This document shows positions 17,584-40,894 of a stretch of DNA of 64,000 bases, one piece after another. The stretch comes from an uncultured Eubacteriales bacterium (lineage in GTDB: Bacteria > Actinomycetota > Coriobacteriia > Anaerosomatales > JAAXUF01), in assembly GCA_964541375.1 (NCBI GenBank), contig CAZIPT010000002.1:445-64444 (forward strand), written 5' to 3'. The notes under the pieces were generated by a model. That model did not search any database, was not told the DNA's origin, and was given only the letters and a program-made list of their open reading frames with translations. How positions within the stretch are numbered: position 1 is the stretch's first letter; every line of letters starts with the position of its first letter. The position numbers and the translations under genes were made by a program.

Positions 17584-17744
17584 TTATGTCGGCATCATCC
17601 CAGCTCAGAGCCTCGCCAACACCTCACATTAGAGAATTCACAAGCAAGGCTGGTTCATTTGTTGCTACGCTCCGCAGTGTGAGTAATCGACACGCTCGAT
17701 AAACCGGCCGAGCGGTCGTTTGAGTTTTGAAGTGAGTGATTCGC

Positions 17745-19538
17745 ATGAAGGTAGTTCGTCGCTGTGCTGCGATGGCTCTATTCGCCGCGGTGATTTTGCA
17801 GGCGGGGGTCGGGGTGGCCGTTCCCGCACAGAGTGTCCGGGGGGTTTCCTTCTCGGACGCAACACACGGCTATCTCGCGGGGGGATACTCTGGTGACGAC
17901 GGCGTTGTCGCCTACACGGCCGATGGAGGCCTGAGCTGGAGACCCACTCAGCTTCCCAATCGGTACACGTGGGCGGTGGGCGCTTCCGCTGACGGATTGT
18001 CTGCGACCGCTGTTGCCTACTCCCAGGACGTAGCGATCACAACCTCAAACGGCGGGGTCAGTTGGACGGAGGATTCGCCGGTCTTCGGCGGCGTTCCCAA
18101 CTTCGGCGGGACGACTCAGATTAACGACGTCGCGCACTTGAGCGGCGGTCCTGTCGCCGTTGGTGGGCAGCAGGGAACCGCCACCTATGGGGATGTCGGC
18201 GCGATTTCGCGCAAGAGCGCCGGGCTCTGGGCACCGACATTTCGCCCGTTCTTTCTCCCGCTCGACGGTGGCGACCTTATCGGACCTATTCCTCAGCCGA
18301 CGTACGCCTCTCTGACCTCGATTGACGCCGCCCCCGGTGGCAACGTGGCACTTGCAGTTGGAACCTACACGGCCCCTCCCACCGCGCCCTACACCAACCC
18401 GCCCACGCCAGGGCCCCTTCGTACGATCGTGTATCGCACCGTCGACGGCGGGTCGACATGGACCACCGACACGGCGACTTCCGGAGCGCCTGCTTGGTCG
18501 CCTACAGCTGTGACCGCCGCTGACGCAGACGTCGCCTATGCCACGTTCTCCGCGGGTTCGCTCGGCAGCAATTACTTTCTGCGTAGATCTGCCGCCGGCG
18601 TCTGGACAAGGTCGGATCAGTGGATTGCATCCGGCTTCCTGTCGAACTCACTGGACGCATACGACGCGGATCACCTTGTGGTGGTGGGCAACCAGGGCAA
18701 GCTGTACTACACCGCGAACGCCTCTTCCGCCACACCGACATGGATCGCGCTTGCCACAACGGGTTCGGCCAACGATCTGTATGGCGTCCAAATGACCGGC
18801 CCCGATAGCTGGATCGTGGTGGGCGGCAACGAGACCATCGTCCGGTTCACCAACGCTGGAGCAAACCAGGCAGGCTCGTATGGACTTGGCGCACCGGTTC
18901 CCGTCATCACCTCTCACGCTTCCGGTTTCTCTCTCCCGGCCGGCTCCATAAGCGGTACTGCGTGGGACGCAGGCGTTGGTGTGCTGAAGGTCGAAGTCCG
19001 GATTCAGCGGGCCCTGGACAGCAAGTTCTGGAACGGCTCGACGTGGGTTGCTGACGCGACCCAATACAACCTTGCGAGCATGCCGACCAACACAACCTGG
19101 ACCTATCCGTTCGCGTCTGGCGAGATGTCGGCGCTTACCATCACGGTTCGTGCCACTGACGGGATGGGCCTCATGGCCACTACCGCCGTCAACTCGGTCG
19201 GCGTGCCTCCGGCTGCGCAGTCGGTCACTCTAGGAACGTGGACCAGTATCGCCGGCAAGAGCAGCGCGAAGGTTCGCAGGTCCTACACCGTGTCGGGTTC
19301 CATCTCGCACGCGGCTGCTCCGGGTGTCGTATCGATCACCATGCAGCGCAAGGTCGGCAGAAGGTGGAAGAACGCCGGAACCGCTCGCGTTGGCGTGTCC
19401 AACGGATCCTACCGCTACAGCTTCAAGCCGAGGTACAAGGGCTACTGGCGCTTCGTCTCGACGTATTCGGGTGGCACCTCCGGCCTAACGACTTACACGT
19501 CGTCTAGGAGCGGCACCAAGACCATCAGAGTGAAATAG
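17745..19538 (+). CDS. Exported BNR/Asp-box repeat (sortilin/Ycf48-like) beta-propeller protein with C-terminal beta-sandwich modules
   Basis: Signal peptide MKVVRRCAAMALFAAVILQAG. Asp-box motifs are TADGGLSWR, TSNGGVSWT and TVDGGSTWT. The C-terminal module is shared with the protein at 38226-39485. Confidence 0.7.
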   Translation: MKVVRRCAAMALFAAVILQAGVGVAVPAQSVRGVSFSDATHGYLAGGYSGDDGVVAYTADGGLSWRPTQLPNRYTWAVGASADGLSATAVAYSQDVAITTSNGGVSWTEDSPVFGGVPNFGGTTQINDVAHLSGGPVAVGGQQGTATYGDVGAISRKSAGLWAPTFRPFFLPLDGGDLIGPIPQPTYASLTSIDAAPGGNVALAVGTYTAPPTAPYTNPPTPGPLRTIVYRTVDGGSTWTTDTATSGAPAWSPTAVTAADADVAYATFSAGSLGSNYFLRRSAAGVWTRSDQWIASGFLSNSLDAYDADHLVVVGNQGKLYYTANASSATPTWIALATTGSANDLYGVQMTGPDSWIVVGGNETIVRFTNAGANQAGSYGLGAPVPVITSHASGFSLPAGSISGTAWDAGVGVLKVEVRIQRALDSKFWNGSTWVADATQYNLASMPTNTTWTYPFASGEMSALTITVRATDGMGLMATTAVNSVGVPPAAQSVTLGTWTSIAGKSSAKVRRSYTVSGSISHAAAPGVVSITMQRKVGRRWKNAGTARVGVSNGSYRYSFKPRYKGYWRFVSTYSGGTSGLTTYTSSRSGTKTIRVK

Positions 19539-19649: not shown

Positions 19650-19720
19650 CGGTGGGGTTCTTGCCACCCCGCGCTGAGTACCGTTGGAACCGGCCACTTC
19701 ACAAGGAAAGGAACCGCCGC

Positions 19721-20725
19721 GTGCCGAGCTTCAGGCAGATACGACCTCTCGACGCCGTGATCGTGGTCGTTGCTGTGCTCGTGGTGTTGGTCGGTGGCTA
19801 CCTGGGGTACTCGGTGTGGGCACAGAACAAGAGGATTCGAGATGCCTCGCCTTCGACTCGCGAAATCGCATCACTGACGGCGAAACTGCGCGCGAACCCC
19901 AACAACTTCGACACGCGCATGCGTCTGGCGCAAGCCTTCGCTGTGGCGGGTCGTGATGACGAGGCCATCGGGCAGTACAAGGCGATTCTCAAAGTCAACC
20001 CGAGCTTTGTTCCGGCGCTCTCGGGCGTGGGATTTGAGTATCTCAAGCAGAAGAAGTGGAAGGAGGGGGAGGGCTACTTCCGCAAAGTCGTCTCCCTCAC
20101 CGAGAAGGACACGACCAGCGTCGGTTCGAGTCCGCTGGAAACGGCCTACTTCTACTTGGGGATCGCTCTGATGGAACAACGGAAGTACGAAGAGGCCGTC
20201 GGTTTCTTGAAGGGGGCGCTCCGGCTGCGCCGCGACTCGGCGGACGCCAGCTACGCTCTTGCTGTGAGCTATCGAGAGCTCGGAATCATGGACGGCTACG
20301 AGGAGTATCTCCTCTACACGCTGAAGTTCGACCCCAACATGGCCGAGGCCAACTACGACTACGGCATGCTGCTGCTGTCCAAGAAGGACCTGGCCTCGGC
20401 GGCAGAGTACTTCAGGCGCTCGGTCCACGCTGCGCCCGGCGTCGACAAGCCGCAGATCGAACTCGACAAGCTCGGCAACTTTGATGATCGTCTCGCTGAG
20501 GCCAAGAAGCTCAAGCCGACCGACCCCGCAAAGGCGCTGGTCGAGGCGCGGATCGCTTCTGCGCTCGATCCGCAGTCGGTCGAGGCGCTTGCGCTTGTCG
20601 GGGAGCTCTACGAGGCCACCGGCCAGCGCGACAAGGCGGCCGAGGCCTACCGAGAGGTCCTGGTGCTTGAGCCCGGCAACGCATTGGCGACTGAAGGGTT
20701 GAAGCGGGTGTCCAATGGATCCTAG
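19721..20725 (+). CDS. Membrane-anchored TPR-repeat protein
   Basis: GTG start with AAGGAAAGGAA upstream. There is one N-terminal TM helix (AVIVVVAVLVVLVGGYLGY), then several TPR-like units (AEANYDYGMLLLSKKDLASAAEYFRRSV, etc.). Confidence 0.75.
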   Translation: MPSFRQIRPLDAVIVVVAVLVVLVGGYLGYSVWAQNKRIRDASPSTREIASLTAKLRANPNNFDTRMRLAQAFAVAGRDDEAIGQYKAILKVNPSFVPALSGVGFEYLKQKKWKEGEGYFRKVVSLTEKDTTSVGSSPLETAYFYLGIALMEQRKYEEAVGFLKGALRLRRDSADASYALAVSYRELGIMDGYEEYLLYTLKFDPNMAEANYDYGMLLLSKKDLASAAEYFRRSVHAAPGVDKPQIELDKLGNFDDRLAEAKKLKPTDPAKALVEARIASALDPQSVEALALVGELYEATGQRDKAAEAYREVLVLEPGNALATEGLKRVSNGS

Positions 20726-22301
20726 TCAGATACCGGCTCCGACGGTTCCAGCCGAGGCCCCGGCCGGGTCTGGATTCGGTTCTCGCATTCCACCGTCGCA
20801 GCAGAGGGACCCCAGCAAGCTGACGGGGCCGGAGCGTCGACGGCGCATCGTGCTGCTTACGTTCCTGCTCCTCCTGTTGGCGATCCTCGCCTACGTCGCC
20901 TACTACTACAGTCAGAACAAGCGGCTTCCGTCCCTTGGGGTTGCACCCCCTGGGGCCACGGCGATCACCCCGCCTCAGTTCCTCTTCGCGTTCTCCGGCG
21001 AGGGCGCCAACACGCTCAAGCGCCCCGTCGGCGTCGCTGTCGGCCCTGACGGACGCGTCTACGTCGTCGACTTTGGCAACAAGCGCGTCAGCGTGTTCTC
21101 CAGCCAAGGGCGCTTCCTGTCCTCCTTCGACACGCTTTCCGACGGCAAGAAGCTGACTAACCCGGTTCATCTGGCAATCAAGGGCAACGAGGTTTGGGTC
21201 ACCGACCGCCGGCTGCGGAGCATCAGCATCTTCGACCTCAACGGCAAGTTCCTTCGCACGTTCGAGCCCAAGAACGAGAAGCTGACCTGGACGCCGCTCG
21301 CGCTTGGTTTTGACAACAAGGGTCAGCTTCGCGTCACAGACGTTGGTGACACCAAGAATCACCGCGTCGTCTACTTCTCGGCCGACGGCTCGCGAACAGC
21401 CATGTTTGGGAAGACCGCTCAGGTCACTCGGCCCAGCGATTCCCCGGGTGAGTTCCTGTTCCCCAACGGGGTCGCGGCCGACAAGAAGAACAACATCTAC
21501 ATCTCTGACGGTAACAACCGACGGATTCAGGTGTTCTCTCCGGAGGGCACCTTCAAGAGCTTCATCGACGCAAGCGGAATCCCTCGCGGCATCGCCATAG
21601 ATGATCGCGAGCGCCTGTACGTAGTTGACGCGTTGGCCAACGACGTACGGGTCTTTGGCGTCAAAGGCCAGACCTTGACGCAGTTCGGCTCGCGCGGGTT
21701 CGGGCCGGGTCAATTCAACTACCCGAACGACATCGCGCTTGACGCACGCGGGCGCATCTACGTCACCGACCGAGAGAACAACCAAGTCCAGGTTTGGGGC
21801 TGGCCCGTCGCCGCCCTCCCGGCCATACCGCTGCCGAGCAAGCCGCTGTACTGGCTGCTGTGCCTCTCGCCGCTTCTCCTGTTGCCGCTGCTTGTGCGCA
21901 GGCGCAAGACCCGCATCATCGTCACGCCTGACTTCGTCGACGCTCTCGCCGAGGTGCAGGAGATTGCGGCCGTGGCCGCCAAGTCCCGCCTGCGCCTGAT
22001 CGCGCCCATCGAAGACGAGCCCCTCTATCAGGGTCGTGTCGTGGAGGGCGTTGTGCTGAGCGACCTCATCAGCTTCGAGGAGCACTCTGAGTCCGACGTT
22101 CGCAGCCTCATCGAGAAGCTGCAGGTCACGGAGCGCCAGGCGATTCTGATATCCATGACCTGGAGGGCGAAGGCGCTTGCGACCCAGGATCGGGAGCTGA
22201 GATGGCTGGCGGTGCTCGCTGAAGTCCGAGCGGTGAACGTCGAAGAATTCAGGTCCGTTTATCTGGGTAGGGAAGTCAATAAGGAAAGTGCGACTTTGTA
22301 A
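20715..22301 (+). CDS. NHL-repeat beta-propeller protein flanked by two TM helices, with an unassigned ~150-aa C-terminal tail
   Basis: The ATG overlaps the TPR gene by 11 nt. NHL-type repeats include GVAVGPDGRVYVVDFGNKRVSVFS, GIAIDDRERLYVVDALANDVRVF and DIALDARGRIYVTDRENNQVQVW. TM1 is near aa 45-65 and TM2 is LYWLLCLSPLLLLPLLV. Confidence 0.75.
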   Translation: MDPSQIPAPTVPAEAPAGSGFGSRIPPSQQRDPSKLTGPERRRRIVLLTFLLLLLAILAYVAYYYSQNKRLPSLGVAPPGATAITPPQFLFAFSGEGANTLKRPVGVAVGPDGRVYVVDFGNKRVSVFSSQGRFLSSFDTLSDGKKLTNPVHLAIKGNEVWVTDRRLRSISIFDLNGKFLRTFEPKNEKLTWTPLALGFDNKGQLRVTDVGDTKNHRVVYFSADGSRTAMFGKTAQVTRPSDSPGEFLFPNGVAADKKNNIYISDGNNRRIQVFSPEGTFKSFIDASGIPRGIAIDDRERLYVVDALANDVRVFGVKGQTLTQFGSRGFGPGQFNYPNDIALDARGRIYVTDRENNQVQVWGWPVAALPAIPLPSKPLYWLLCLSPLLLLPLLVRRRKTRIIVTPDFVDALAEVQEIAAVAAKSRLRLIAPIEDEPLYQGRVVEGVVLSDLISFEEHSESDVRSLIEKLQVTERQAILISMTWRAKALATQDRELRWLAVLAEVRAVNVEEFRSVYLGREVNKESATL

Positions 22302-22421
22302 CACTTGCCGCAATCTCCCTTGAGGTGTACGGTACGGATGCGGGGTCTGCGTCTTGCAGGCCAGCTGTCAGGGTCCGGCAACCCGGCGCGAACCGCACTT
22401 GAAATCAGAAGAACAGCGCGA

Positions 22422-22519
22422 TCTCCGAGCCTCTCTGCCTACGGCGCCTCCGGCGCTAGGGCACCCAGGCCGTCGGGTTTCACCGGAAACAGTGGAGCCT
22501 CCCTTCCTTGGAAAGGAGA
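22422..22519 (+). ncRNA. Candidate Moco (molybdenum-cofactor) riboswitch aptamer
   Basis: Conserved blocks as I recall them from the Moco RNA motif and E. coli moaA leader: CUCCGAGCCUCU, GCACCCAGG and GCCUCCC-N6-UGGAAAGGAG. A P1 helix UCUCC(22422-26)/GGAGA(22515-19) is possible. It lies about 275 nt upstream of a molybdoenzyme gene. Confidence 0.6.
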
Positions 22520-22793
22520 ACGCATCCGGCCGGAACGTCCGCTCGCGGGCGATTCCTTTGCGATGCGTTGTTCTTCGGGGTAAGGAGATCGTCAAAATGT
22601 TGTGTTCTCGAACCGGACCACTGTCTGGGCCTCACTTGGCCTTGCGGTGCTTCGGTTCTTCTTTTTGGGGGCTTCCGATCGGCGATCGCAGCGTGAAGGG
22701 AGGGTCGACCTCCTAGCTGCTGGCGTTCCCATCTGCTGCACGACGGAAGCCGCGACTGATCTTCTGCTTCAACTGAGAGAGAGGGATGGAGGA

Positions 22794-25700
22794 ATGGCAA
22801 CTAAAGACACCGGGCAACCGGCCAACGGGATAAGCAGACGCGCGTTTGTGACCTCGGCGGCCGTTGCTGCAACGGCAGCCGGATGCGGGTTCGAAGTCGC
22901 GTTTGACGCCGCTAAGGCACTCGCCTACGAGAGTTCGACAGACTACAAAGTCACAAACACCACGTGTCCCTACTGCTCTGCCAGCTGCGGACAGCGTGTC
23001 GTTACTGCGCTCACCGGCGCGAACGCTGGCAAGGTCGTCGACATCTACGGTGACTTCGAGTCCCCGATGAACTCCGGCGGACTGTGCGCCAAGGGCGCGG
23101 GCTCGCTGCAGCTTGTCAACAACCCGTACCGTATCGGTGCGTGGGAGACCACGCATCCCGTCAATTCCGTGTTCGCCGCCAAGCCGGCCGCCACGACGTT
23201 CGGGGCGAGTCCGACCGGCTGGACCGGGCCGGCGTACACGGGTAGCGGCTACACCTACGGCGGCGGCGTGGCCTACTGGCGTCTCGGCGATGAACCGTGG
23301 AACCCAGTCCCGCTCGACGTCGCAATGGCTGATATCGCTGGCAAGCTCAAGACGGCCCGCGAGTACGACACCGCGCGTTGGGACGAAGCCAACGGCAAGA
23401 CCTTCAATAGCAAGAGCGTTGCGTTCTTCGGTTCGTCTCACATGAACAACGAGATGAACTACGTATACCGCAAGATCATCGCGAACTTCGGTACGAGCAA
23501 CGTCGAGCATCAGGCCCGAATTTGACACAGCTCCACGGTGGCCGGTCTGGCCGCCGCATTCGGTCGCGGTGCAATGACGAACCATTGGCAGGACATCGCC
23601 AACTCGACCCTGGTAGTTGTGTGGGGAGCCAACCCGTCTGAGAACCATCCGGCGTGCATGGCCCACATAAACCGGGCGAGGTATCCCAAGCAGTTCTTTG
23701 CGAGCAGCGACGCCAGGTCGAGCAAGCAGGCCGCCCGGATGATCGTGATCGATCCGCGGAAGAACCGCACCGCCCAGCAGGCTGATGACTACGTACGCAT
23801 CCGCCCTGGGACGGACATCGCGTTCCAGAACGGTGTGATCAAGTACATCATCGACCAGATGGAGTCTGGGACGAGCGTCTCGACGGCTGCCAAGACCGCG
23901 TTCTTCGCCTATCTCAACCAGACTGGGAACGGCACTTTCTACACGGACGGCAGCGCGTCTCTCCAGAGCAAGACCTCGGCGACCGTCGCCGGTAGCGCGA
24001 AGTACACCGACGCGCGGTTCTTGGTCAACGGCACCGACACGGACTATGTCCGCGGGTCAGTGAACACCCTTGGGGCAGTCGCCACCACGGAGACCGCGGA
24101 GAACACGATCTCGAACTTCCCCACCAAGTCCACCAACTGCCAGACCGGCAATACGGTGTACAACCGCCTCAAGGCGCACGTCGCGCCGTACACGACGGCC
24201 AAGGTAGTCGAGATATGCGAATGCGCCGACACCGATATCTCACTGGTGGGCGACGCGATCATTGCCAACAGCCGTTGCTCGAGCGTGGGCAAGGCCTTCG
24301 TGGATAAGAAGATGAAGGTCCGCTTCACACAGACGGCCGGTTTCCAGAATGGTGCGGCCACCACAGCGCAGGACGCCATACCGCTGTGGGCATCGGGCGT
24401 CACGGTCTCAAGTGTGACCAGCCTCGATGGCCTGACAAACTACTCGAATGGGACCGACTATACCTTCGCGGCAACCGGGACCATCACGCGCGTGGCGACG
24501 GGGACGATTCTCGACAAGCAGGTGTGTCTTGTCACGTACTCCGGTACCACGGACCAGGCACCGCAGGACACCTACCGTGCGACGACGATTCTCTACGCGA
24601 TGGGCATCACGCAGCACACCTGCGGCTCCCAGAACGTCAAGGGCTTCGCCAACCTGCAGGGGCTCATGGGCAACAATGGACGCGCTGGCGGTGGCATCAA
24701 TGCGCTGCGTGGCATCCACAACGTTCAGGGCTCGACCGACATGGGCCTGCTTTACGGCAACATCCCCGGTTACTCGAACAATCCGTCCGAGCAGCCGGCG
24801 GAGGTCGTGACGCTGACTGGGACTACGGCGGTTGCCCTGCAGTGGAAGAACTACGACAACACCGCGGTCACTATCACGGCCGTGCAGTCGGATGCGTCCG
24901 TGATCTACGCGGCCACCGACTACGACCTCGTAGTAAACGGTAGCGGGTACACGACGATCGCTCGGAGCGCCACGTCCACCATTGCTGACGGCGCCACCGT
25001 CTACGTGAGCTACACCCACGCGATATCGGCCACGGCAGCCGGCCCGGCAAAGGTCTACAACGCTTTTGGCCGCTACGTGAATGCGCTGTGGGGCCTGCCA
25101 GTGCACGGTACCGCCGGACGTTCTCAGATGAACCTCAGCTACGACGATGCTTACACCACTACTGGTGGCATCATGCAGCTGCAGCAGCGTGGCTTCTACA
25201 ACATGACGCTGAAGTGGTTCGGTGACTACGCGACGTACGGGACCGCCGCGCTCAGCAGCGCCAAGAGGACCGCAATCGACGCGACGTACGGGCTGTGGCC
25301 AAAGGGCAACGGCGACAACCACATCAAGATGTTCCGCAACATGGCCTCCGGCAGCGTGAAGGCCGCGGTCGTGTGGGGACAGAACCCCGCCGTCACCGAG
25401 CCCAACCAGAGCAAGATCCGCGACGGGCTACACGAGCTCGACCTTCTGGTGGTTGCCGACATGTTCGAGACGGAGACCGCCGGGTGTGGCCGCAAGGCTA
25501 CCGGCGTCACGTATCTCCTCCCGGCTGCCTCGCATGTGGAGAAGGCCGGTTCGGCGACGAACTCCGGTCGAGTCCTGCAGTGGCGCTACAAGGCGATCGA
25601 TCCGGTCGGCAACTCCAAGGACGACCTTGAGTTGCTCCTCCGCTTCGCGCGCGCACTCAACGACGCCCACTGCTTCAAGCACATCGAGACCGCCAATGGC

Positions 25701-27011
25701 TGGACCGCCGACACGGCCTACACCAAGCTCTACGCCACCCCTTACGGCTGGGACCCCAAGGCGACCATCGCCAGCGTCGGGAACTCGACCGACTTCAAGC
25801 TGGCCGGCAACCTGTCGAGTGCCGCGATCGACTTCGCGACAGTTGGCGTGACGGTCGGGGACGGCACCACCTATGCGTCGCTCGTTCCCTCCGCAGACAC
25901 CAGGGTCAACGGTGCAGAGTTCGTCGCCGAGATGATCTTCCGCGAGTGGGCGGCCGGCAATGGCAGCACGGGTGCGGGCATCTACACGACGCCCAACGGC
26001 ACGACGACTTCGGGCGGCACGCTCTGGATCTACGTCGAGGGATACGATCAGTCCGGCAAGACCGGGCGTCTCTATCCCGAGTACACTGACTGGGGAGTGT
26101 TCAACCGTTCCAAGAGCCGCGATCGCCAGGATCCGTACGGCGTGCTTGCCACCCACAAGTGGGGCTACTGCTGGCTCGTCAATCGTCGCGTGTTCTACAA
26201 CAACAACGAGATCGCCGGCGACCAGCCGGACTTCTTCATGAGTCCCGACTCGTGCACGCGCCTCTTCGCGCCCGATGTCACGCAGCCCGCATGGACTCCC
26301 ACGGGCAGCACGATCTACAACTACGCGCGTTGGTACCGGACGATCGGCGCTCCCACCAAGCACGTGCTTGCAGACAAGCCGCTCTTCAGTAACGGTTTGA
26401 AGCCGAGCGTCCACGTCGTCCCCGGACGGTTCCCGTCTCACGTGGAGCCCTACGAGACGCCGTCGCCCGCGATCGCCGATGACCCGACCAACGGGTTCGG
26501 CTACAACTCCACACTCGACACCGCCATCAATGCGGTCGGAGCCAGGAACCTCCTGTACTCGGGCTCAGCGGTCGGCACGTCGAGCACGTACCCGCTCGTT
26601 CTGACTACCGTCCGGTGTGTGGAGCACTTCCAGGGTGGCCCGATCACCCGTAACAACTGGTTCAACGTCGAGCTCGAGCCGCAGCCGTGGATCGAGATCA
26701 ACTCGGCGGACGCACGTATTGCAGGAATCAAGGACGGCAACATGGTACGAGTCGTCACTGCCCGTGTTGCCGACAATGCCGGCAACTTCGTGAGTCCGGC
26801 CAACTACGGCCAGGGGTTCATCGCACGTGTCGGCAGTGGTCTCTCCGCAGGTCAGAAGGTCGCCGCCGGCGTCGTTGCGATTCCGTGGCACTGGGGAGAG
26901 AAGGGTCTTTCGACCGGCTCCCGCGCCAACGACCTCACCATCGACGCGATGGACGCGAACACCACGATTCCAGAGTTCAAGGCCTGTCTTTGCCGCATCG
27001 AGAAGATATAG
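22794..27011 (+). CDS. Tat-exported Mo/W-bis-MGD oxidoreductase catalytic subunit, FdnG-like formate dehydrogenase, with selenocysteine encoded by the in-frame TGA at 23523-23525
   Basis: Twin-arginine signal GISRRAFVTSAAVAATAAG. N-terminal Fe-S motif CPYCSASCGQ...GGLCAKG. ORFs 22602-23525 and 23538-27011 are in the same frame and are separated only by a TGA. The junction reads EHQARI-U-HSSTVAGLAAAFGRGAMTNHW, close to E. coli FdnG NQARVUHGPTVASLAPTFGRGAMTNHW. The conserved ALRGIHNVQG Arg is present. The gene has 1405 codons. Confidence 0.85.
23523..23555 (+). promoter_or_regulatory. UGA-Sec recoding site with SECIS hairpin
   Basis: UGA CAC AGC UCC ACG GUGGCC GGUCU GGCCGCC. The stem is 7 bp (one G-U pair). 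The apical GGUC begins 19 nt after the UGA, the same loop sequence and spacing as I recall for E. coli fdhF (UGA CAC GGC CCA UCG GUU GCA GGUC UGC). Confidence 0.8.
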
Positions 27012-27024
27012 GGAGGTGTGACCG

Positions 27025-27990
27025 ATGACTGTTATGGCAATCCTGCAAGACGTCGACAAGTGCATGAGATGCAACGGGTGCGTAACGGCCTGCAAGCGTG
27101 AGTGGAACCTCAAGCTGCCGACCGATATCTCCCAAGTGATCCCGCAGAAGTCAATCGTCAACCCGCGTCAGCGCCTCGCTATCAAGAGCCTGCGGCGCGG
27201 AGACATGGGACCGCACATGAGGTTTTCGTGTTGGCACTGCCCTGATGCCCCGTGCATCAAGGAGTGTCCGCGCGGTGCGATCAAGCAAGAGGCAACCGGT
27301 GCCGTCAGTGTGAACACCGGGCTGTGCGCACCGACTCTCTGCAAGGCGGGCCCCGGCCCCAGGCCTTGTGAGATCGGCTGCCAGCAGGGTGGGTATCCCA
27401 AGGTGGGTCCTGCCTACGAGACCGGTCAGTATGCCGGTCAGGTCAAGATGAACAAGTGCACGCTCTGTACCGGTCGCGCCGGAGCCGACGGTGTCGTAGA
27501 CGCCGCCACCGCTCTGCCGACCAGGTCGACCAGAGTCCAGACTTCGGTCGATCCCGCTCCCAAGACGTACGTCTGGCCGAGTCCTTTGGTGCTCCCGAGT
27601 GGCGGAACGCTGACCGATGTCAACGTCCCTGAACTCGCCCACGAGCCGGCGTGCGTCTCGTCGTGCCCCGCGAAGGCCATGAAGTGGGACTCCAAGGCCA
27701 ACATCCTGAAGTACCTGCAGGACCCGGCCAACGGATACACCCTGGCCGGCGGCACGCAGAACTGGATCGGCAACGGCGGCGTCTACTGGGCGTCGAGGAA
27801 CACCAGGATTGTTCCGCCGAAGGCCGACCCGTTCGTCGAAGATCACCTCACGCCCATGGTGAGCAGCGTGGTTTCAGGAGGCAGCAAGCTCATGATTCCG
27901 GCTCTGCTGCTCGGCGGTTTCGCAGTGGTCTCCATGCGGCGCACCAAGGTTCAGGCCGAAGCCAACGATCTGTCAGCAAGGGAGGTGTAG
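27025..27990 (+). CDS. FdnH-like 4Fe-4S cluster subunit with a C-terminal TM anchor
   Basis: GGGAGGTG lies upstream. Ferredoxin motifs are CMRCNGCVTAC, CWHCPDAPCIKECP, CTLCTGR and CVSSCP. The C-terminal helix is LMIPALLLGGFAVVSM. Confidence 0.85.
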   Translation: MTVMAILQDVDKCMRCNGCVTACKREWNLKLPTDISQVIPQKSIVNPRQRLAIKSLRRGDMGPHMRFSCWHCPDAPCIKECPRGAIKQEATGAVSVNTGLCAPTLCKAGPGPRPCEIGCQQGGYPKVGPAYETGQYAGQVKMNKCTLCTGRAGADGVVDAATALPTRSTRVQTSVDPAPKTYVWPSPLVLPSGGTLTDVNVPELAHEPACVSSCPAKAMKWDSKANILKYLQDPANGYTLAGGTQNWIGNGGVYWASRNTRIVPPKADPFVEDHLTPMVSSVVSGGSKLMIPALLLGGFAVVSMRRTKVQAEANDLSAREV

Positions 27991-27996
27991 GACCGC

Positions 27997-29280
27997 ATGA
28001 AAGCTTCACGACTCTTCTTCGCAACTGTCCTCGTCGCCCTTGCCGCACTGGCATTGCCGACGGCCGCGTTCGCGAACTTCGCGATTCACGGCAACTATCT
28101 GAAGGACACCGATGCGTGTGCCGGTTGTCACCGCGCACACACGTCAGTCAGCACCATCGGCTGGACCGATGCCAATAACAATCAGCACTCTTCAGCTCTG
28201 CTGGTGACATCTGCAACTGAGATGTGGCAGTTCTGCTACGCCTGCCACGACGCTACGAGCCAGGGTGCCGATACCAACGTTCAGCAGGGTATCTGGGAAG
28301 GCGACTCAACCTACGGGACTCCCGGCGGTCTTCTCAACGGCGGCGGTTTCGACTCGCTCGCCGAGACGGCCACAACGTCGACGCACATGTACAAGGGCTC
28401 TTCGTGGGGCGCGTACGGCGGAGGTTACGCCGGTAACACCAAGGCGCAGAACTACGGTATAGCCGCCGACGGCAGCACGGCTGGGCAGGGCGCCAACGCG
28501 TTCATGACCGGCACCGGCAACTCCATCAAGATGGATTGCGCCAGCTGTCACGACCCGCACGGGAGCGCGAACTACCGCATCCTGAAGGCCGTCGTCAACG
28601 GCAATCCTGTCGGTGGCTATGGTCCAGGCAACGGACCGGGCGGGGCGCAGGATCCCAACCCCAACGGTTTCGTCTCTTCTGTCGAGACCGGCTGGCCTGT
28701 TAACGGCTTCCGACTCCACACGCAGTATCCCGAGTACAAGCCGAACTACACGACCCCCATGTACGCCAGAGGCTACGACATGGGAACCTTGACCACCGCC
28801 ACTGCGGGACCCACCAACGTGGACAAGGGCATGAGCGGTTGGTGCGCTGGTTGTCACAGCACGTATCTGGGACAGCTGTCCGGCGTTCCGGCTAGCTTCG
28901 CCACAACGTACAACGCTGGTGACGGCGGCGGCCTCGCAGTTCGTCACAAGCACCCGATCAACGTGCCTCTGACCAACTACGAAGGCCCGGACGCGGCCAA
29001 CATGGTCAAGGACAGCTCATCTGGCCTGCCTTTGGCTCATGGCAAGAACGAGCAGGGTAACCCAGTTACCAACGAGGACGACTGGATCGAGTGTCTGACC
29101 TGCCACCGTGCCCACGGTACGGCAGCTTCGATGAGCGGCTGGGCATCCAATGCCGGAGCCGCATCAGTCGTAGGTACTGACGGGCTTGCCTCCAACAAGT
29201 TTGTTGCGGCCGGCGCCGTTCCGTCAGCACTGCTTCGCTATGACAACCGTGGCGTCTGCGAAAGGTGCCACAACAAGTAG
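27997..29280 (+). CDS. Secreted hexahaem c-type cytochrome
   Basis: GGGAGGTG lies upstream. It has a Sec signal peptide and six CxxCH motifs (CAGCH, CYACH, CASCH, CAGCH, CLTCH, CERCH). Confidence 0.85.
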   Translation: MKASRLFFATVLVALAALALPTAAFANFAIHGNYLKDTDACAGCHRAHTSVSTIGWTDANNNQHSSALLVTSATEMWQFCYACHDATSQGADTNVQQGIWEGDSTYGTPGGLLNGGGFDSLAETATTSTHMYKGSSWGAYGGGYAGNTKAQNYGIAADGSTAGQGANAFMTGTGNSIKMDCASCHDPHGSANYRILKAVVNGNPVGGYGPGNGPGGAQDPNPNGFVSSVETGWPVNGFRLHTQYPEYKPNYTTPMYARGYDMGTLTTATAGPTNVDKGMSGWCAGCHSTYLGQLSGVPASFATTYNAGDGGGLAVRHKHPINVPLTNYEGPDAANMVKDSSSGLPLAHGKNEQGNPVTNEDDWIECLTCHRAHGTAASMSGWASNAGAASVVGTDGLASNKFVAAGAVPSALLRYDNRGVCERCHNK

Positions 29281-29312
29281 GCTCGCCAGAGCGAAGATTC
29301 TTGGTATCGTCG

Positions 29313-29342
29313 GAAGGGTCGGGGGTGAAACCCCGACCCTTC
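29313..29342 (+). terminator. Strong hairpin after the cytochrome gene (terminator or attenuator)
   Basis: GAAGGGTCGGGG-GTGAAA-CCCCGACCCTTC, a perfect 12-bp stem 33 nt after the stop. The downstream run is TCTCTCG, so the U-tract is poor. Confidence 0.6.
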
Positions 29343-29393
29343 TCTCGACGTAGGGTTGTTTCGGCAGAGATGCGATGCAACAGAAGGAGCCCG

Positions 29394-30833
29394 GTGAACG
29401 CTCGTCTCGTCACTGCAGCGGTGTTCTCGGCCGCCGTGCTGAGCACCCTCTCGTCGTTCCTCGTGACGACGGTCGCCATGGACTCGCTTCCCGACGCCGT
29501 GCTTGTGGGTGTCAGCACGGTCGTCGCGTTCCTGGTCGTCGTCACAGCGGGAGGCTGGCGGGTCGCCGAGCAGATCCGTGGCCTGGAGCGGACGACACTC
29601 GCGCTCGCACTTGTTGGAGGGGCGCTGACCTTGTGGGCGGCCCCCTTCCTCGCTCTGTCCCAGCGTGCAACAAGCGCCCCCTCGGGCGCTGACTCGCTCT
29701 TCTTCACCACGACCCTCTGGAGCGTTCTGGTGGTGTTCGGCGCGTATGTGATCCGGACCCAGCGCCCCGCTCTGACCGCTATCGCCGGCGCCGTGTGCGC
29801 GGCAGCGGGTGCCATGGGGCTGCTCGCGAGCTGGGAGTATCCGAGTTCGTTCGCACCGTTCGCGAAGTTTCCTGTCCGAGAGTCACTCATGTTGGTCGCC
29901 GGAGTCCTTTTCGCGGTCGGCATGCTGGCCCTTACTGAGGCCGCGCGAAGGATCGGTGCTCGCTACGCGGCGACGTTGGGTCTGGGCGGGGCTGCGGTGC
30001 TCGGCACGCTCGCCTGCCTGCCGAGGCTTCCTGCGGTAGTCTCGGCAGGTGTCTCGGCGTGGAGGCCCAGCATCTATCTCGGCGTGATCACGGCCGTGTT
30101 TGCGGTGAGCTTGCTGTGGACGGCCGCTCAGGTGGGAGCCGCACGTGCCTCAGCAGCGCTGCTGTTGGTTGCTCCCGCGATGACGGCGTTATCGGCGTAC
30201 GAGCAGGCCACCTCGGTCTACGGAGTGCTGCCGTTCGCCATGCGTGGGGTGTTGACGGGTTCGGCGATCGTGGTGGTCGGAGCGGCTGTCCTCTGGCTGT
30301 CTGAGCTCGACAGGAAGCCGTCTCGTGCACTCCGTGACAGGGTCACCGCAGCTGCTCTGTGGGTTGCGGTCGGGTCGTGCGCGCTTGCGGCCGTCTCACT
30401 GGTCACTCCGGCGCTCGACGCGCTGTCGGAGGGCCACATAACCGCGACCTTCCGCGCGGCGTGGGTGATGCTCGGCTACGAATCGGCCGCCGGCTGGATG
30501 CCGGTCGCGGCAGCGCTGCTGGCACTCGCGGCCGTACTCGAGGCCCGCCGCGGGCAGGAGGCGCGCGCCTGGGTCGCGGCGTCTGCGGCGGTGTTCGCCT
30601 GCGCGCTCGCGATGACGCTTCTCTCGGCGACGACGATCCACACCTGGAATAGCTGGGTCCCAGCCGAGGTCCAGCAGACATACGGCACGGAGTATGCTCG
30701 CTTGTCGGTATCGGCCATCGTCGATCCCGTGAGGGTAGGAGCGATGGCGCTCGCTGTTGTCTCGGCAGGTCTGCTCGGGCTGTCTGCCGCTCAGGACGCC
30801 AGAACCGCTCGTTCAACGGAAGCAGGTTCGTGA
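29394..30833 (+). CDS. Polytopic integral membrane protein (about 12 or more hydrophobic segments), unassigned
   Basis: GTG start with GAAGGAG 5 nt upstream (alternative ATG at 29370). The composition is Ala/Leu/Val-rich. There are only two His residues, so it is not an FdnI-type dihaem cytochrome b. Confidence 0.6.
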   Translation: MNARLVTAAVFSAAVLSTLSSFLVTTVAMDSLPDAVLVGVSTVVAFLVVVTAGGWRVAEQIRGLERTTLALALVGGALTLWAAPFLALSQRATSAPSGADSLFFTTTLWSVLVVFGAYVIRTQRPALTAIAGAVCAAAGAMGLLASWEYPSSFAPFAKFPVRESLMLVAGVLFAVGMLALTEAARRIGARYAATLGLGGAAVLGTLACLPRLPAVVSAGVSAWRPSIYLGVITAVFAVSLLWTAAQVGAARASAALLLVAPAMTALSAYEQATSVYGVLPFAMRGVLTGSAIVVVGAAVLWLSELDRKPSRALRDRVTAAALWVAVGSCALAAVSLVTPALDALSEGHITATFRAAWVMLGYESAAGWMPVAAALLALAAVLEARRGQEARAWVAASAAVFACALAMTLLSATTIHTWNSWVPAEVQQTYGTEYARLSVSAIVDPVRVGAMALAVVSAGLLGLSAAQDARTARSTEAGS

Positions 30834-31684
30834 TGAGGTCCAGTCACGCGATGAAGGTCTCGCTGGCGCTCACCTTGGTGCTGCTCACGACCTTGTCGGC
30901 GACAGGCTGTCAGCGCAAGGTCGAGGTCCAGTCCGGTACGCGCACCGTGTGCACCTCGGGAGAGGTCATTTCCGACAACGTCACGACCATCAAGGTGCCC
31001 GCGAACAAAGCTGGCGCCTACCGAGTGAACACCGTTGTGGTGACGTGCGACAAACATGCGAAGGCGCCGACGCTCTACGCGGAGGCCCAGACCGCGCTGG
31101 CTGCCGGCGACACGAAGCTCGCCGCATCCAAGCTCGCCCAGGTCCTTGCGCTCGATCCGACGTACCGCAAAGCCAAAGAGCAGGCCGCTTCGATCGCCAA
31201 GGGCGGCAAGCCAGCGCCTGACACGACGCCCGCCCCCAGTGCTCCGACCACCGTGACAACGCCGATCACGCCTCCCAAGCCTGGTGAGGATCCAGGGACC
31301 GTCGGCGCGCTGGGAAAGTGGACGCCCGACACTATCACGGGTTTTGCGGCGGGCAAGGTGCTGTCGGATGCGCTGACCGTGTCTCGCGAGTACGTCCCAA
31401 CGGGCTCCTCGCCAACCAAAGGACTGGTGATCGTAGCCGAGCAGTTCCGCACCGCTGCAGACGCGAAGCGCGGTGTAGAGCAGCAGGTCAAACGGACCCA
31501 TGGCAAGGACGCGGCGACGCTCAGTGTCAACGGGCACGACGCGTACTTTGGGACCGATGGCCGACGGTTCGCGGCGATCGGCTTCACCGACGGCGCGGTG
31601 ATGGTCGCACTCGAGCTGACCACGGACAAGTCGCCCCAGAACCTACGCTCACTCGCCGAGCAGGTCGCCAAGCAGCTGCCCTAG
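30830..31684 (+). CDS. Lipoprotein with a TPR-like helix pair, a Pro/Thr linker and an unassigned C-terminal domain
   Basis: The start (GTG 30830 or ATG 30833) overlaps the upstream TGA. Lipobox LSATGC. Confidence 0.6.
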   Translation: MMRSSHAMKVSLALTLVLLTTLSATGCQRKVEVQSGTRTVCTSGEVISDNVTTIKVPANKAGAYRVNTVVVTCDKHAKAPTLYAEAQTALAAGDTKLAASKLAQVLALDPTYRKAKEQAASIAKGGKPAPDTTPAPSAPTTVTTPITPPKPGEDPGTVGALGKWTPDTITGFAAGKVLSDALTVSREYVPTGSSPTKGLVIVAEQFRTAADAKRGVEQQVKRTHGKDAATLSVNGHDAYFGTDGRRFAAIGFTDGAVMVALELTTDKSPQNLRSLAEQVAKQLP

Positions 31685-31729: not shown

Positions 31730-32923
31730 CTAGCAGCTACCCGGTACCGAGCACGGCGCCGAGCGCTGGAACTCAGGCGTGGCTTCGAGGTGCGCGACGA
31801 GTTCGCTGCGGTCCGTCTCGGCGTGGAGCAGGCACGTGACGTCCTCGGCCATCGGATCGCCGGTGCGCTGCCAAGCCTTGGCGCGGCACCCGCGGCAGAT
31901 GCGCGAGTACTCGCACGCCTCCGGAGAGCACACTCCCTCGGACTCCTGCTGGTCGAGTTCGTAGAGCTCGCAGACCGCGTCCTGCAGAGAAGTCTCGCGG
32001 ACGTTGCCGATAGTCCAGTCCTGGGCGAACTGGCAGGGCATGATGCCGCCCTCGGAGTTTATGTTCATATGGCCCTTGCCCACCGGGCACGCCGAGATGG
32101 TCTTGAGGCGCTCGAGGCCGTTGGAGACGTCGACGCCGCGCGCGGTGAGCTGCTCGGCCACGTAGGGGATGAAGCTCGGCATCGCGCCGATGTCCCACTC
32201 CATCGTGGACTCCTCGGAGAGGATGTCGTCGATGATGAAGTCGCCCAGCTCGCGCCACTGCTCGGGCGTGATGCGGCCGTCGTCCTCGCCCTCGCTTCGG
32301 CCGGCGGTGATGAGGTCGCAGAAGTAGAGTAGGCCGACGTCAAGCTCCTTGGCCTCGGCGATGAGGTCGTAGATGTACGGCCAGGTGTCCTTGCTGATCG
32401 CGGTCTTGATGGCGACATTGACGCCCTCTTCGCGCAGCACCTTGATGGCCTCGATGACGCGGTCGCGGGTGCCGGGTACCCGGACCATCGCGTCGTGGAA
32501 ATCGGCGGGGCCGTAGAGCGAGGTGGCGATCCAGTCGATGCCTGCAGCACGCAGGCGCTTGGCGGCTGCGCGGTCCATCATCGTGCAGTTGGTCGAAACC
32601 GTGACGCGGATGTCGAGCTCGCGTGCAAGCTCGAGGATCTCCCAGAAGTTCGAGCGCATCATCGGCTCGCCTCCCGAGAGGAACAGTGCAGGCAGGCCGC
32701 GCTCGCCCATCTGGCGCACGAGGGCGATGGTCTCCTCATTGGTGAGCTCGTCGGGTCGAGTGTGGCCGTCGGCGGCCATGTAGCAGTGGTCGCAGAGGAG
32801 GTTGCAGCGGTTGGTTATGTTCCAGATGACGTCGCTGGGGCGGCCCAGCTTGTACGCCTTCACCGCGCGGTTCTCGACCGTGTCGAGCGGACCCTTGAAG
32901 AACAGTGACCGGACGTGTGCCAT
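31730..32923 (-). CDS. Radical SAM / SPASM-domain protein (AhbD/NirJ-like or other maturase)
   Basis: CNLLCDHC radical-SAM cluster motif and the SGGEP motif. The C-terminal Cys-rich SPASM region is CPVGKGHMNINSEGGIMPCQF...CSPEACEYSRICRGCRAKAW. GGAGG lies upstream of the chosen ATG. The ORF track extends to 33001. Confidence 0.8.
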   Translation of the reverse strand: MAHVRSLFFKGPLDTVENRAVKAYKLGRPSDVIWNITNRCNLLCDHCYMAADGHTRPDELTNEETIALVRQMGERGLPALFLSGGEPMMRSNFWEILELARELDIRVTVSTNCTMMDRAAAKRLRAAGIDWIATSLYGPADFHDAMVRVPGTRDRVIEAIKVLREEGVNVAIKTAISKDTWPYIYDLIAEAKELDVGLLYFCDLITAGRSEGEDDGRITPEQWRELGDFIIDDILSEESTMEWDIGAMPSFIPYVAEQLTARGVDVSNGLERLKTISACPVGKGHMNINSEGGIMPCQFAQDWTIGNVRETSLQDAVCELYELDQQESEGVCSPEACEYSRICRGCRAKAWQRTGDPMAEDVTCLLHAETDRSELVAHLEATPEFQRSAPCSVPGSC

Positions 32924-33108
32924 ACGAGTGCCTCCTACGTTCGGGCACCACCGTTTCGGCGCCCCCATGAGTGTTCGCGCACCATAGTATGCAACCCACA
33001 AGCCATGGGTGCGAGTTGTAACTATTGTTGCTGAAAGAGACTGAAGTCACTTCAGGTCGAGCTGCGACGGCACGGGCTCGGCGTGCGGGTACACTGGATG
33101 CAAAGGAG

Positions 33109-40370: not shown

Positions 40371-40894
40371 GCGGGGGAATTGCACTGAGTGGGCAAGCAG
40401 CATTTCAATCATCCTGTCGGTCTCTGAGACGCAACGAACCCGGTCCCTCTGGCGCACTTACGCCGTCAGGGCCAGGTCCGAAATCTCAGAGCCAGCAGTC
40501 CTACGGCAACCCGGCTGTCATGGGGAGTCCGTGAGGATTCCCTTTAGACCCGTGGCTTTGCGAAGCCGGCTTTCACCGGCGGTGCCTTTGTCACTAAGAG
40601 GAGAGTCGCTGCTTTTCTCTTTTCAACGCACCTATCTATTCGGCAGAAAAGGGCTCCGACTTGAGGCGCCGGCGAGGCGCGATGGTTGCCGTCTTGTGAG
40701 ATACGTCACAGAGAGACACGCTCGGCGCCGTTGTCTTTCGCAATCCGGAGCGTTTGCGCAGGTGCGCAGCGAAGGCGGCCGTTCACCACAAGCCACGGCG
40801 CGGTGAGGTGCGCTCGTAGCGCGCCTCAGGCATTGACTAGGTGCGTGACGACAAAGCATGGCTTTCGAGCTGGGGGCGAGCGGTGCCGACCTGT

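Follow-up and report, generated by a model that had tools for sequence, protein, structure and literature searches.

What receives the electrons of an outward-facing formate dehydrogenase when no quinone-reducing cytochrome b is encoded beside it? The question is raised by three closely spaced plus-strand genes, fdhA, fdhB and a gene for a hexahaem c-type cytochrome, at positions 22794-29280 of a 64,000-nucleotide stretch of contig CAZIPT010000002.1 (assembly GCA_964541375.1), from an uncultured bacterium of the actinomycetotal order Anaerosomatales; the whole stretch is called the window here. The answer favoured below is that fdhAB encode an extracytoplasmic, membrane-tethered selenocysteine formate dehydrogenase (FDH) which probably has an OmcS-family hexahaem cytochrome, and not a quinone-reducing cytochrome b, as its dedicated partner. 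FDHs, OmcS-family cytochromes, molybdenum/tungsten cofactor (Moco/Tuco) riboswitches and the drug/metabolite transporter (DMT) fold are each of a known kind; to our knowledge, their combination is new. The new element appears to be an OmcS-type hexahaem cytochrome as the operon-encoded partner of a catalytic FDH or, interchangeably, of a hydrogenase, within a frame of tetratricopeptide repeat (TPR) and NHL proteins in monoderm-type Actinomycetota. No paper tying OmcS homologues to FDH or hydrogenase operons was found in the searchable literature.

The gap between fdhA and fdhB is 13 nt and that between fdhB and the cytochrome gene 6 nt, and the same Shine-Dalgarno sequence, GGGAGGTG, lies 5' of the start codons of both downstream genes. 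The 6-nt gap, the shared Shine-Dalgarno sequence and RNA-seq data for orthologues (PMC7943316) are consistent with co-expression of the cytochrome with fdhAB. A preliminary description of this DNA had given the same gene order, coordinates, gaps and common Shine-Dalgarno sequence, all of which were borne out on the sequence; so were its readings of the products as an FdnG-like catalytic subunit with a twin-arginine translocation (Tat) signal, an FdnH-like four-cluster subunit with a C-terminal transmembrane (TM) helix, and a cytochrome with a Sec signal and six CxxCH sites. Its three-gene unit proved to be the core of a longer one, which extends upstream to genes for a TPR and an NHL protein and downstream to genes for a DMT-like membrane protein and an anchored extracytoplasmic protein (Table 1).

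This arrangement is not peculiar to the window. A survey restricted to one genome per species gave 78 loci, all from metagenome-assembled genomes (MAGs) or isolates of Actinomycetota, mostly Coriobacteriia (including Anaerosomatales) with some Thermoleophilia; a separately fetched locus, L003, was added and duplicates were removed to give a classified set of 79. The gene for FdhB lies immediately upstream of the OmcS-like gene in 58 of the 79. The gene order recurs in 58 independent loci with protein identities of 40-80%, which is far beyond chance. The full unit comprises TPR, NHL, riboswitch, FdhA (with selenocysteine, U), FdhB, OmcS-like, DMT-like and anchored protein, and TPR and NHL genes are both found upstream in 44 FDH-type loci, where the contig allows. 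The reference locus closest to the window is L029, from an uncultured Coriobacteriia MAG.

The cytochrome has exactly six CxxCH motifs behind a cleavable-looking N-terminal signal peptide, and is the sole CxxCH-containing open reading frame (ORF) of at least 80 aa in the window. When a profile of 29 family members was compared with all PDB sequences, the nanowire subunit OmcS of Geobacter sulfurreducens (6EF8) alone matched at E <0.01. The match (E 3.9e-9, or about 4e-5 when scaled to 1.84 billion proteins) spans OmcS residues 8-360, nearly the full length, and an hhalign comparison of the family with OmcS gave a probability of 98.6% and an E-value of 9e-16. The six haem motifs are collinear with those of OmcS, with CxxCHxxH at haem 1, CHDPHG at haem 3, GMSxWCxxCH at haem 4 and CLxCHRAH at haem 5 common to both, and eight further His residues beyond those of CxxCH are invariant in the family. 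Judged by these motifs and profiles, the cytochrome is a member of the OmcS family, a relationship that had gone unrecognised in the preliminary description, although its count of six haems was right. The family is a large one, with 1140 representatives at 50% clustering (E at most 1e-3). An OmcS homologue with all six motifs has been described in an anode-enriched Coriobacteriales genome, with no link made to FDH (PMC7399161); the potentials of OmcS itself are reported in PMC10954620.

The catalytic subunit, FdhA, carries the twin-arginine motif SRRAFV at its N-terminus, and a Tat motif is present in all 58 FdhA sequences matched across the loci. PF04879 (Fe4S4), PF00384 (Molybdopterin) and PF01568 (Molydop_binding) score above the Pfam cut-offs, and the N-terminal [4Fe-4S] motif CPYCSASCG...C can be read in the translation. 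The best PDB matches are to the tungsten (W)/selenocysteine FdhA of Desulfovibrio vulgaris (E 1e-94 to 1e-96), with the tungsten FDH of D. gigas (9e-88) and E. coli FdnG (2.5e-83) among the further ones. The surroundings of the selenocysteine-histidine pair, EHQARI-U-HSSTV, align residue by residue with those of D. vulgaris FdhA (EHQARIUHSxTV), and EHQARI-U-HS is invariant in the 58 orthologous sequences matched; the active-site arginine motif reads GGGINALRG against GGGVNALRG in D. vulgaris. On its active-site motifs and closest solved relatives, FdhA can be regarded as a true formate dehydrogenase.

FdhB has 16 Cys residues, the Pfam domains Fer4_7 and Fer4_11 and, among PDB sequences, a weak similarity to beta subunits of FDHs, FdnH (1KQF_B) being one of them. 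It has no signal peptide of its own, and ends in a hydrophobic segment followed by RR. Over 60 locus rows the number of Cys residues is 16 in 56 and 17 in the other 4; the tail, PTLVxGGLxAxxARR, is conserved, with a hydropathy of at least 1.6 in 51 of the 60 rows and of 1.58 in the window.

The conventional third subunit is missing. By Pfam and NCBIfam, the window cluster contains no cytochrome b or NrfD gene, and neither do the orthologous loci whose gene tables were read, so that the absence of an FdnI-type partner noticed in the preliminary description extends to every locus inspected, with no quinone-linked partner in its place. The next membrane protein encoded downstream has, as that description also noted, only two His residues in its 480 aa, and matches no Pfam or NCBIfam family, EamA and other DMT families included. 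Its AlphaFold2 (AF2) model, made with 40 homologues, is confident (pLDDT 91.5, pTM 0.92). In a Foldseek search of the PDB the top 27 matches were all DMT-type transporters (target-normalised TM-scores 0.55-0.76), among them 5I20 (E 1.8e-5), the CMP-sialic acid transporter, PfCRT, LicB, SLC35B1, Vrg4 and the triose-phosphate translocator. The core of the modelled protein is a ten-TM DMT fold; since no DMT family matches in sequence, it is a relative at the level of the fold only, and adds to it four helices and a beta domain. The idea that it might be an NrfD/PsrC-type quinone subunit in disguise was rejected, as the confident model matches DMT transporters only.

A fold of the DMT type, rather than of NrfD, PsrC or cytochrome b, also excludes a reading of the cluster as a relative of Qrc or alternative complex III. 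Those complexes resemble it in their large subunit of the complex iron-sulphur molybdoenzyme (CISM) type, four-cluster protein and membrane-side multihaem cytochrome, and the QrcB and QrcC models of NCBIfam match marginally. QrcA is a hexahaem protein; the molybdopterin-like subunit of Qrc and alternative complex III lacks the cofactor, and an NrfD-type quinone subunit is obligatory in both. The window, in contrast, has an intact catalytic subunit (selenocysteine, Arg and Fe4S4 motif) and no NrfD-like protein.

Several better known systems each share a part of this arrangement. Like E. coli FdnGHI (1KQF), the window encodes a Tat-exported, outward-facing selenocysteine alpha subunit with a molybdenum (Mo) bis(pyranopterin guanine dinucleotide) (bisPGD)-type site, together with a four-cluster beta subunit that has a single C-terminal TM helix. 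It differs in lacking the FdnI dihaem cytochrome b, and hence a built-in menaquinone site or redox loop, in having a soluble or wall-side hexahaem cytochrome c as third subunit, and in an alpha subunit that is about 400 aa longer. The W/selenocysteine FdhAB (6SDR and others) and FdhABC3 enzymes of Desulfovibrio include the solved catalytic subunit nearest to that of the window (E about 1e-95), in which EHQARIUHS is identical, and their acceptor is a multihaem c-type cytochrome rather than a cytochrome b. The Desulfovibrio enzyme is, however, soluble and works with tetrahaem c3 in a diderm periplasm, whereas FdhB of the window is membrane-anchored and the host is a monoderm-type actinobacterium; nor did the profile of the window's cytochrome family find a significant c3 match among PDB sequences. 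Thermincola potens, with OcwA, and Carboxydothermus ferrireducens, with Smh/Omh, are monoderm hosts of multihaem cytochromes proposed to span the wall. Such chains start at the oxidation of quinol and have no catalytic dehydrogenase within the cytochrome operon; the profile search of the PDB gave no OcwA match at E <0.01, the presence of OcwA among the library chains being unchecked.

With Geobacter OmcS there is agreement in the six collinear CxxCH motifs, a similar length, the CxxCHxxH motif and a neighbouring gene for an NHL beta-propeller. The sequence identity is low, the Geobacter gene does not stand in an operon of the FDH or hydrogenase type, and the window's host has no outer membrane; Geobacter OmcS forms filaments, which the window's cytochrome may or may not do. 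The peptidyl-prolyl isomerase and channel-like genes of the osc (omcS companion) set, as cited in PMC13194489, are not seen in the window, where a TPR protein and the anchored protein are found instead. In Geobacter, the gene for the NHL protein GSU2505 adjoins omcS, and it has been suggested that OmcS assembly or expression depends on this protein (PMC9070056). In the window, the NHL protein matches the Pfam families NHL (3.3e-35) and DUF5128 (6-bladed beta-propeller). The TPR protein matches many Pfam TPR families and, below threshold (33 bits, cut-off 42), TPR_CcmH_CycH, the TPR domain of the CcmH/CycH apocytochrome chaperones of cytochrome c biogenesis.

Homologues of these two proteins accompany the OmcS-like gene whether or not an FDH is encoded with it. 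In 11 of the 79 loci the small and large subunits of a [NiFe] hydrogenase replace FdhAB (Pfam, tblastn), and two loci (L071 and L073) unite hydrogenase, OmcS-like and FDH genes in one cluster, which suggests that hydrogenase and FDH could share one cytochrome; L073 also has the DMT-like and anchored protein genes. A third kind, in Thermoleophilia MAGs, consists of TPR, NHL and OmcS-like genes without any enzyme and may be the ancestral core of the system, and the remaining 5 of the 79 are of other kinds or too short to classify. The actinobacterial system is thus combinatorial: TPR and NHL, then nothing, an FDH, a [NiFe] hydrogenase or both, and the OmcS-like cytochrome. Hydrogenase-type modules encode, where FDH-type modules have the DMT-like protein, a soluble one (about 450 aa) that matches no Pfam family, and they too end in a homologue of the anchored protein (31% identity over 212 aa, E 5e-17). 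The anchored protein of the window, whose start overlaps the DMT-like stop by 4 nt, has no significant Pfam match and contains one TPR-like helix pair. FDH and hydrogenase modules occur in tandem in several genomes. The preliminary description had proposed a search for further multihaem cytochromes: the window holds none, but in more than 40 related loci a homologue of a 20-haem cytochrome immediately precedes the TPR gene, and a 12-haem cytochrome is present as well in those loci that were examined in detail.

Two orthologous clusters come from bacteria whose physiology has been described. The OmcS-like proteins of the biocathode bacterium Coriobacteriaceae sp. EMTCatB1 (GAV31709.1, locus L053) and of Parvivirga hydrogeniphila Es71-Z0120 (MCL4079381.1) fall into one 90%-identity cluster, and in both bacteria the gene order is that of the window: TPR, NHL, FdhA(U), FdhB, OmcS-like, DMT-like, anchored. 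Proteins of the window are about 40-47% identical to those of the EMTCatB1 locus. Unlike the window, the Parvivirga (MCL4079376-90) and EMTCatB1 (1c0406-0408) clusters have large multihaem cytochromes beside the module; that of Parvivirga is also flanked by a second NHL protein and a BNR/cell-wall-binding protein. P. hydrogeniphila, which obligately respires Fe(III), can grow with H2 or with formate; its Fe(III) reduction has been proposed to rest mainly on this cluster, and MCL4079382-3, which adjoin the OmcS-like MCL4079381, have been assigned as its formate dehydrogenase (PMC9686372). In a methane-producing biocathode, 1c0408, 1c0407 and the multihaem 1c0406 of EMTCatB1 were in the top 10% of transcripts, and the fdhB transcript, 1c0407, was higher at closed than at open circuit (PMC7943316). 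The preliminary description could not place the arrangement in any characterised system; it had in fact been mentioned, though not analysed, in these two papers, in passing, as a molybdopterin oxidoreductase or FDH beside multihaem cytochromes, with the multihaem chains of Gram-positive bacteria invoked as a model (PMC9686372, PMC7943316). Neither recognises the kinship of the cytochrome with OmcS, the accessory genes or the hydrogenase counterpart.

Taken together, the genes suggest the following scheme. A P3-less Moco/Tuco riboswitch would gate expression of fdhA, fdhB and the OmcS-like gene. By analogy with E. coli FdnGH, FdhA would receive its cofactor in the cytoplasm before export by Tat, with FdhB co-exported and tail-anchored by its C-terminal helix, while the cytochrome would be exported by Sec and its six haems attached outside the membrane. 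Formate would be oxidised at the selenocysteine-W/Mo site, and the electrons would travel along the cluster of FdhA and the four of FdhB to reach the haems of the OmcS-like cytochrome, and from there through an extracytoplasmic multihaem network to Fe(III) minerals, electrodes or partner cells. Run in reverse, the chain might form formate from CO2 with external electrons. The TPR and NHL membrane proteins would most likely be maturation, assembly or anchoring factors for the OmcS-like cytochrome, and the DMT-like permease, which only the formate version of the module has, is a candidate carrier of formate or a related anion. Circumstantial support for extracellular electron transfer is strong, and is strengthened by the homology to OmcS, the 20-haem homologues upstream and the orthologue in a formate-using Fe(III) reducer.

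A number of points weigh against this scheme. The proposed wiring is deduced from the genes, and the putative association of FdhB with the cytochrome from their order. For the cytochrome, the AF2 model is unusable (pLDDT 44), for which reason the relationship to OmcS rests on sequence and profiles, and the identity to OmcS is low (28% for a related protein; PMC7399161). Unlike most orthologous loci, the window has no second cytochrome c gene, and the partners of the OmcS-like protein must therefore be encoded elsewhere in the genome. A strong hairpin behind the cytochrome gene may uncouple the two downstream genes from the operon. Energetically, if formate oxidation and the acceptor both lie outside, no charge crosses the membrane and no energy is conserved, so that some electrons would have to enter the quinone pool or the cytoplasm through components that are not encoded here. 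The midpoint potentials of Geobacter OmcS, finally, are much more positive than that of the CO2/formate couple, and reduction of CO2 via such haems would need lower potentials in the window's cytochrome family.

The bioenergetic weakness keeps alive a first alternative, in which the OmcS-like protein is a monomeric, c3-like hub that carries electrons from FdhAB or the sister hydrogenase to membrane multihaem or quinone-reactive complexes, energy being conserved by a redox loop or transmembrane electron transfer and extracellular transfer being secondary or absent. Its analogue would be the Desulfovibrio route from FdhAB or hydrogenase via TpI-c3 to Qrc, Tmc or Hmc. The closest solved relative of FdhA is indeed a soluble periplasmic enzyme, that of D. 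vulgaris, whose partner is cytochrome c3, and such a hub would supply the proton-motive force that an all-outside path does not give. Each enzyme module has its own paralogous cytochrome (37-40% identity between paralogues), which fits a specific partner better than a generic wire, and the Parvivirga cluster includes putative quinol-oxidising multihaem cytochromes (PMC9686372). That cluster, on the other hand, also holds large multihaem cytochromes and a protein with cell-wall-binding domains, the conserved module encodes no quinone-reactive subunit, and the cytochrome is homologous to OmcS, not to c3. Of the hosts known, the cultured one is an obligate Fe(III) respirer and the other dominates a cathode. 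We regard the hub as possible but rather unlikely.

A second alternative, equally doubtful as a full account, concerns the direction of the reaction. The enzyme would reduce CO2 to formate outside the cell, with electrons from H2 (via the sister hydrogenase and OmcS-like module), a cathode, Fe(0) or a partner cell, and the DMT-like permease would import the formate for the reductive glycine pathway. Of the 58 FDH-type loci, 55 have the permease gene downstream, against none of the 11 of the hydrogenase type, two clusters combine hydrogenase, OmcS-like and FDH genes, and many genomes have tandem modules; together with the likely use of tungsten, to which the P3-less aptamer and the closest solved relatives point, these features favour such a model. 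Tungsten FDHs are good CO2 reductases. In P. hydrogeniphila, MCL4079382-3 have been assigned to the first, CO2-reducing step of the reductive glycine pathway (PMC9686372), and the abundance of the EMTCatB1 transcripts at a closed-circuit cathode, with fdhB above its open-circuit level, points the same way (PMC7943316). P. hydrogeniphila, however, also grows by oxidising formate (PMC9686372), and its enzyme must therefore run oxidatively at least some of the time. The haem potentials may be too high for CO2 reduction, and the transporter was assigned from its fold; we know of no DMT protein that carries formate.

A stronger form of the favoured reading, in which the OmcS-family cytochrome is the dedicated partner of FdhAB, would let that cytochrome polymerise into a haem wire that crosses the wall and docks on FdhB or on the small subunit of the sister hydrogenase, giving quinone-free nanowires that end in an enzyme. 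In OmcS, His16, the second His of CxxCHxxH, ligates haem 5 of the neighbouring filament subunit (6EF8). Both the corresponding H48 and the motif at haem 5, CLTCHRAH, are the same in all 29 family members and align with those of OmcS, which is compatible with polymerisation, although conservation cannot separate ligation within a subunit from ligation between subunits. Such wires are improbable on present evidence. If they existed, formate/CO2 and H2/H+ would be coupled reversibly and directly to minerals, electrodes and partner cells, the TPR and NHL proteins would be the assembly and anchoring machinery, with the NHL part common to Geobacter, and in genomes that have both modules these would jointly form an extracytoplasmic hydrogen:CO2 oxidoreductase.

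Wiring of the kind proposed would widen the role of OmcS-type cytochromes from the terminal wires of Geobacter to dedicated redox subunits of donor enzymes, would offer a molecular explanation for electron uptake by the cathode-dominating EMTCatB1, and would make the TPR and NHL proteins candidate cytochrome assembly factors in diderms and monoderms alike. It bears on how monoderms exchange electrons with solids, and on the formation of formate and H2 at biocathodes and corroding iron, and is relevant to research on extracellular electron transfer, biocathodes and subsurface actinobacteria. The hosts are widespread, mostly uncultured Actinomycetota of the subsurface; because one member, P. hydrogeniphila, is in culture, the idea is directly testable.

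A third alternative, that FdhA is another selenocysteine/Mo-bisPGD enzyme, such as a reductase of oxyanions or sulphur compounds with the multihaem cytochrome as its electron donor, is very improbable. It draws on the NCBIfam scores, which are below the cut-offs both for the best model, FDH-N alpha TIGR01553 (458 bits, cut-off 814), and for actinobacterial FDH, NF041513 (393 bits, cut-off 1400), so that FdhA is classed as FDH-like by its active site and not as an FdnG equivalog. The shortfall arises because insertions of about 400 aa break the match into five stretches, and while these insertions have no assigned function, the selenocysteine-histidine pair and Arg motif are intact between flanks nearly identical to those of D. 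vulgaris. All top matches are FDHs, with nitrate reductases about 200 bits lower (the best, NapA, at 7e-32 among PDB sequences), which upholds the earlier preference for an FDH over a nitrate, tetrathionate or arsenate reductase, and in the related genome L005 the cluster is followed by an FdhD gene and Moco biosynthesis genes.

Compared with D. vulgaris FdhA, the insertions occupy residues 113-166, 355-594, 672-844 and 956-1117, and account for the enlargement of the catalytic subunit to 1405 aa which had been noticed before. The last three (window 23850-26140) are rich in Thr, Ser, Gly and Ala. They have no significant Pfam match and contain a weak internal repeat, NGxxYT..I.R.AT.TI.D..V.V.Y, whose E-value in one single comparison was 4e-4. 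They differ widely in length: in orthologues at loci not cut by a contig end or frameshift, 926-1383 residues follow the selenocysteine codon. They may be surface or wall-contact domains. At the N-terminus, a conserved Cys ends the Tat signal in the window's clade in a lipobox-like context (AAGC, VVGC or AASC; residues 15-32, window 22794-22900), where more distant orthologues have AxA cleavage sites instead. FdhA of this clade may be a Tat-exported, lipid-anchored lipoprotein.

The in-frame TGA of fdhA is kept in 37 of 37 distinct orthologous sequences, and in 35 of them a hairpin starts 13 nt after the UGA, with GGUCU (27) or GUCU (8) in its loop, which we take to resemble the loop of the selenocysteine insertion sequence (SECIS) of E. 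coli fdhF. The fold z-score against shuffled sequences (-0.05) is uninformative in such GC-rich sequence, and the evidence for the element is its conservation across loci. That the TGA is a real stop, leaving fdhA split or dead as gene callers have it in every related contig, has a negligible probability, for it stands inside an invariant motif ahead of this conserved hairpin and of about 1100 in-frame codons with a high GC content at third positions. The window contains no selABCD and no tRNA gene, hence no selenocysteine tRNA. Of the earlier label of a selenocysteine/Mo enzyme, the selenocysteine therefore stands; the metal is probably tungsten rather than molybdenum, because the aptamer described below lacks P3 and the nearest solved relatives are tungsten enzymes.

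The riboswitch noted in the preliminary description was recovered as an RF01055 covariance-model match of 65.1 bits (gathering score 36, E 2.2e-13). The columns of the P3 hairpin are deleted in its alignment, and P3-less variants of this aptamer correlate nearly perfectly with use of the tungsten cofactor (PMC2408646). The aptamer is at the same place in all six FDH-type leaders tested and absent from one hydrogenase-type locus. Directly 3' of it, CGTCCGCTCGCGGGCG followed by ATTCCTTTGC matches the pattern of a terminator-like hairpin with a T-rich tail, a candidate expression platform; control of the genes by the aptamer would follow from this layout.

The hairpin just 3' of the cytochrome stop lies in a 106-nt segment (29275-29380) with a minimum free energy of -47.7 kcal/mol (z = -3.66). 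Of the loci inspected, all 12 of the FDH type and both of the hydrogenase type have a comparably strong hairpin 3' of the OmcS-like gene (L001, L003, L005, L009, L012, L013, L022, L031, L035, L045, L053, L060, L070 and L076). These hairpins have 12-16 bp, are very stable, GC-rich and without a U tract, and their stem is partly conserved (GGAAGGGCCGGGG...). The element is probably a terminator or mRNA stabiliser that sets the ratio of fdhAB-cytochrome to the downstream genes.

Table 1. Features of the module in the window and, where a locus is named, of related modules.
Feature	Position	Strand	Detail
TPR protein gene, first gene of the module	19652..20725	+	One N-terminal TM helix (residues 33-51), repeats predicted outside
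NHL-repeat beta-propeller protein gene	20715..22301	+	TM helices 45-63 and 376-394; cytoplasmic tail (about 130 aa) at the C-terminus
Moco/Tuco riboswitch aptamer, P3-less variant	22411..22535	+	Rfam RF01055
Terminator-like hairpin and T-rich tail, candidate expression platform	22536..22561	+	Consensus pattern scan
fdhA, Tat-exported selenocysteine Mo/W-bisPGD FDH catalytic subunit	22794..27011	+	1405 aa
UGA selenocysteine codon and SECIS-like hairpin	23523..23556	+	Codon 23523-23525; hairpin 23536-23556, apical loop GGUCU
fdhB, four-[4Fe-4S] electron-transfer subunit	27025..27990	+	C-terminal membrane anchor
OmcS-family hexahaem c-type cytochrome gene	27997..29280	+	427 aa; Sec signal peptide, predicted cleavage between AFA and N
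13-bp GC-rich hairpin just 3' of the cytochrome stop	29312..29343	+	No U tract
Polytopic membrane protein gene	29394..30833	+	Modelled DMT-superfamily fold, extra helices, small beta domain
Membrane-anchored extracytoplasmic protein gene, last of the module	30830..31684	+	Lipoprotein-like signal LSATGC
Hydrogenase-type loci	L070:6405-9980, L076:6400-9933, L062, L063, L072, L074, L078-L081, L083		
TPR, NHL, hydrogenase small and large subunits, OmcS-like, FdhA, FdhB	L073:4087-19729 and L071		
Enzyme-free TPR-NHL-OmcS-like	L052:4585-8500, L058:7267-11100, L066:1719-5633		Thermoleophilia MAGs

Pfam searches of 20 flanking ORFs detected no genes for cytochrome c maturation, selenium, Moco or menaquinone. 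Right after the module, a convergent gene (31730-33001, minus strand) encodes a radical SAM/SPASM protein. Its best match, at 1e-52 and below the cut-off, is to the haem b synthase AhbD and to NirJ-like proteins, which hints at a sirohaem-dependent haem pathway; the gene is not conserved beside the module in other loci. On the other side, just upstream of the TPR gene (17736-19538, plus strand), lies the gene for a secreted 600-aa protein with BNR/Asp-box-like DGGxSW repeats, a C-terminal immunoglobulin-like region and no Pfam match; the Parvivirga cluster encodes a BNR/sortilin-like protein with cell-wall-binding domains (L085:14825-18496). Further away, a cyclic di-GMP-I riboswitch (RF01051, 71.7 bits; 40502-40596, minus strand) stands upstream of two ORFs for secreted proteins (40457-39513 and 39485-38226) and of one for a DUF4012 protein (38061-36178), next to glycosyltransferase, polysaccharide deacetylase and Wzz/tyrosine-kinase genes. 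This part of the window, at about 40 kb, is probably an envelope or matrix locus under the control of cyclic di-GMP.

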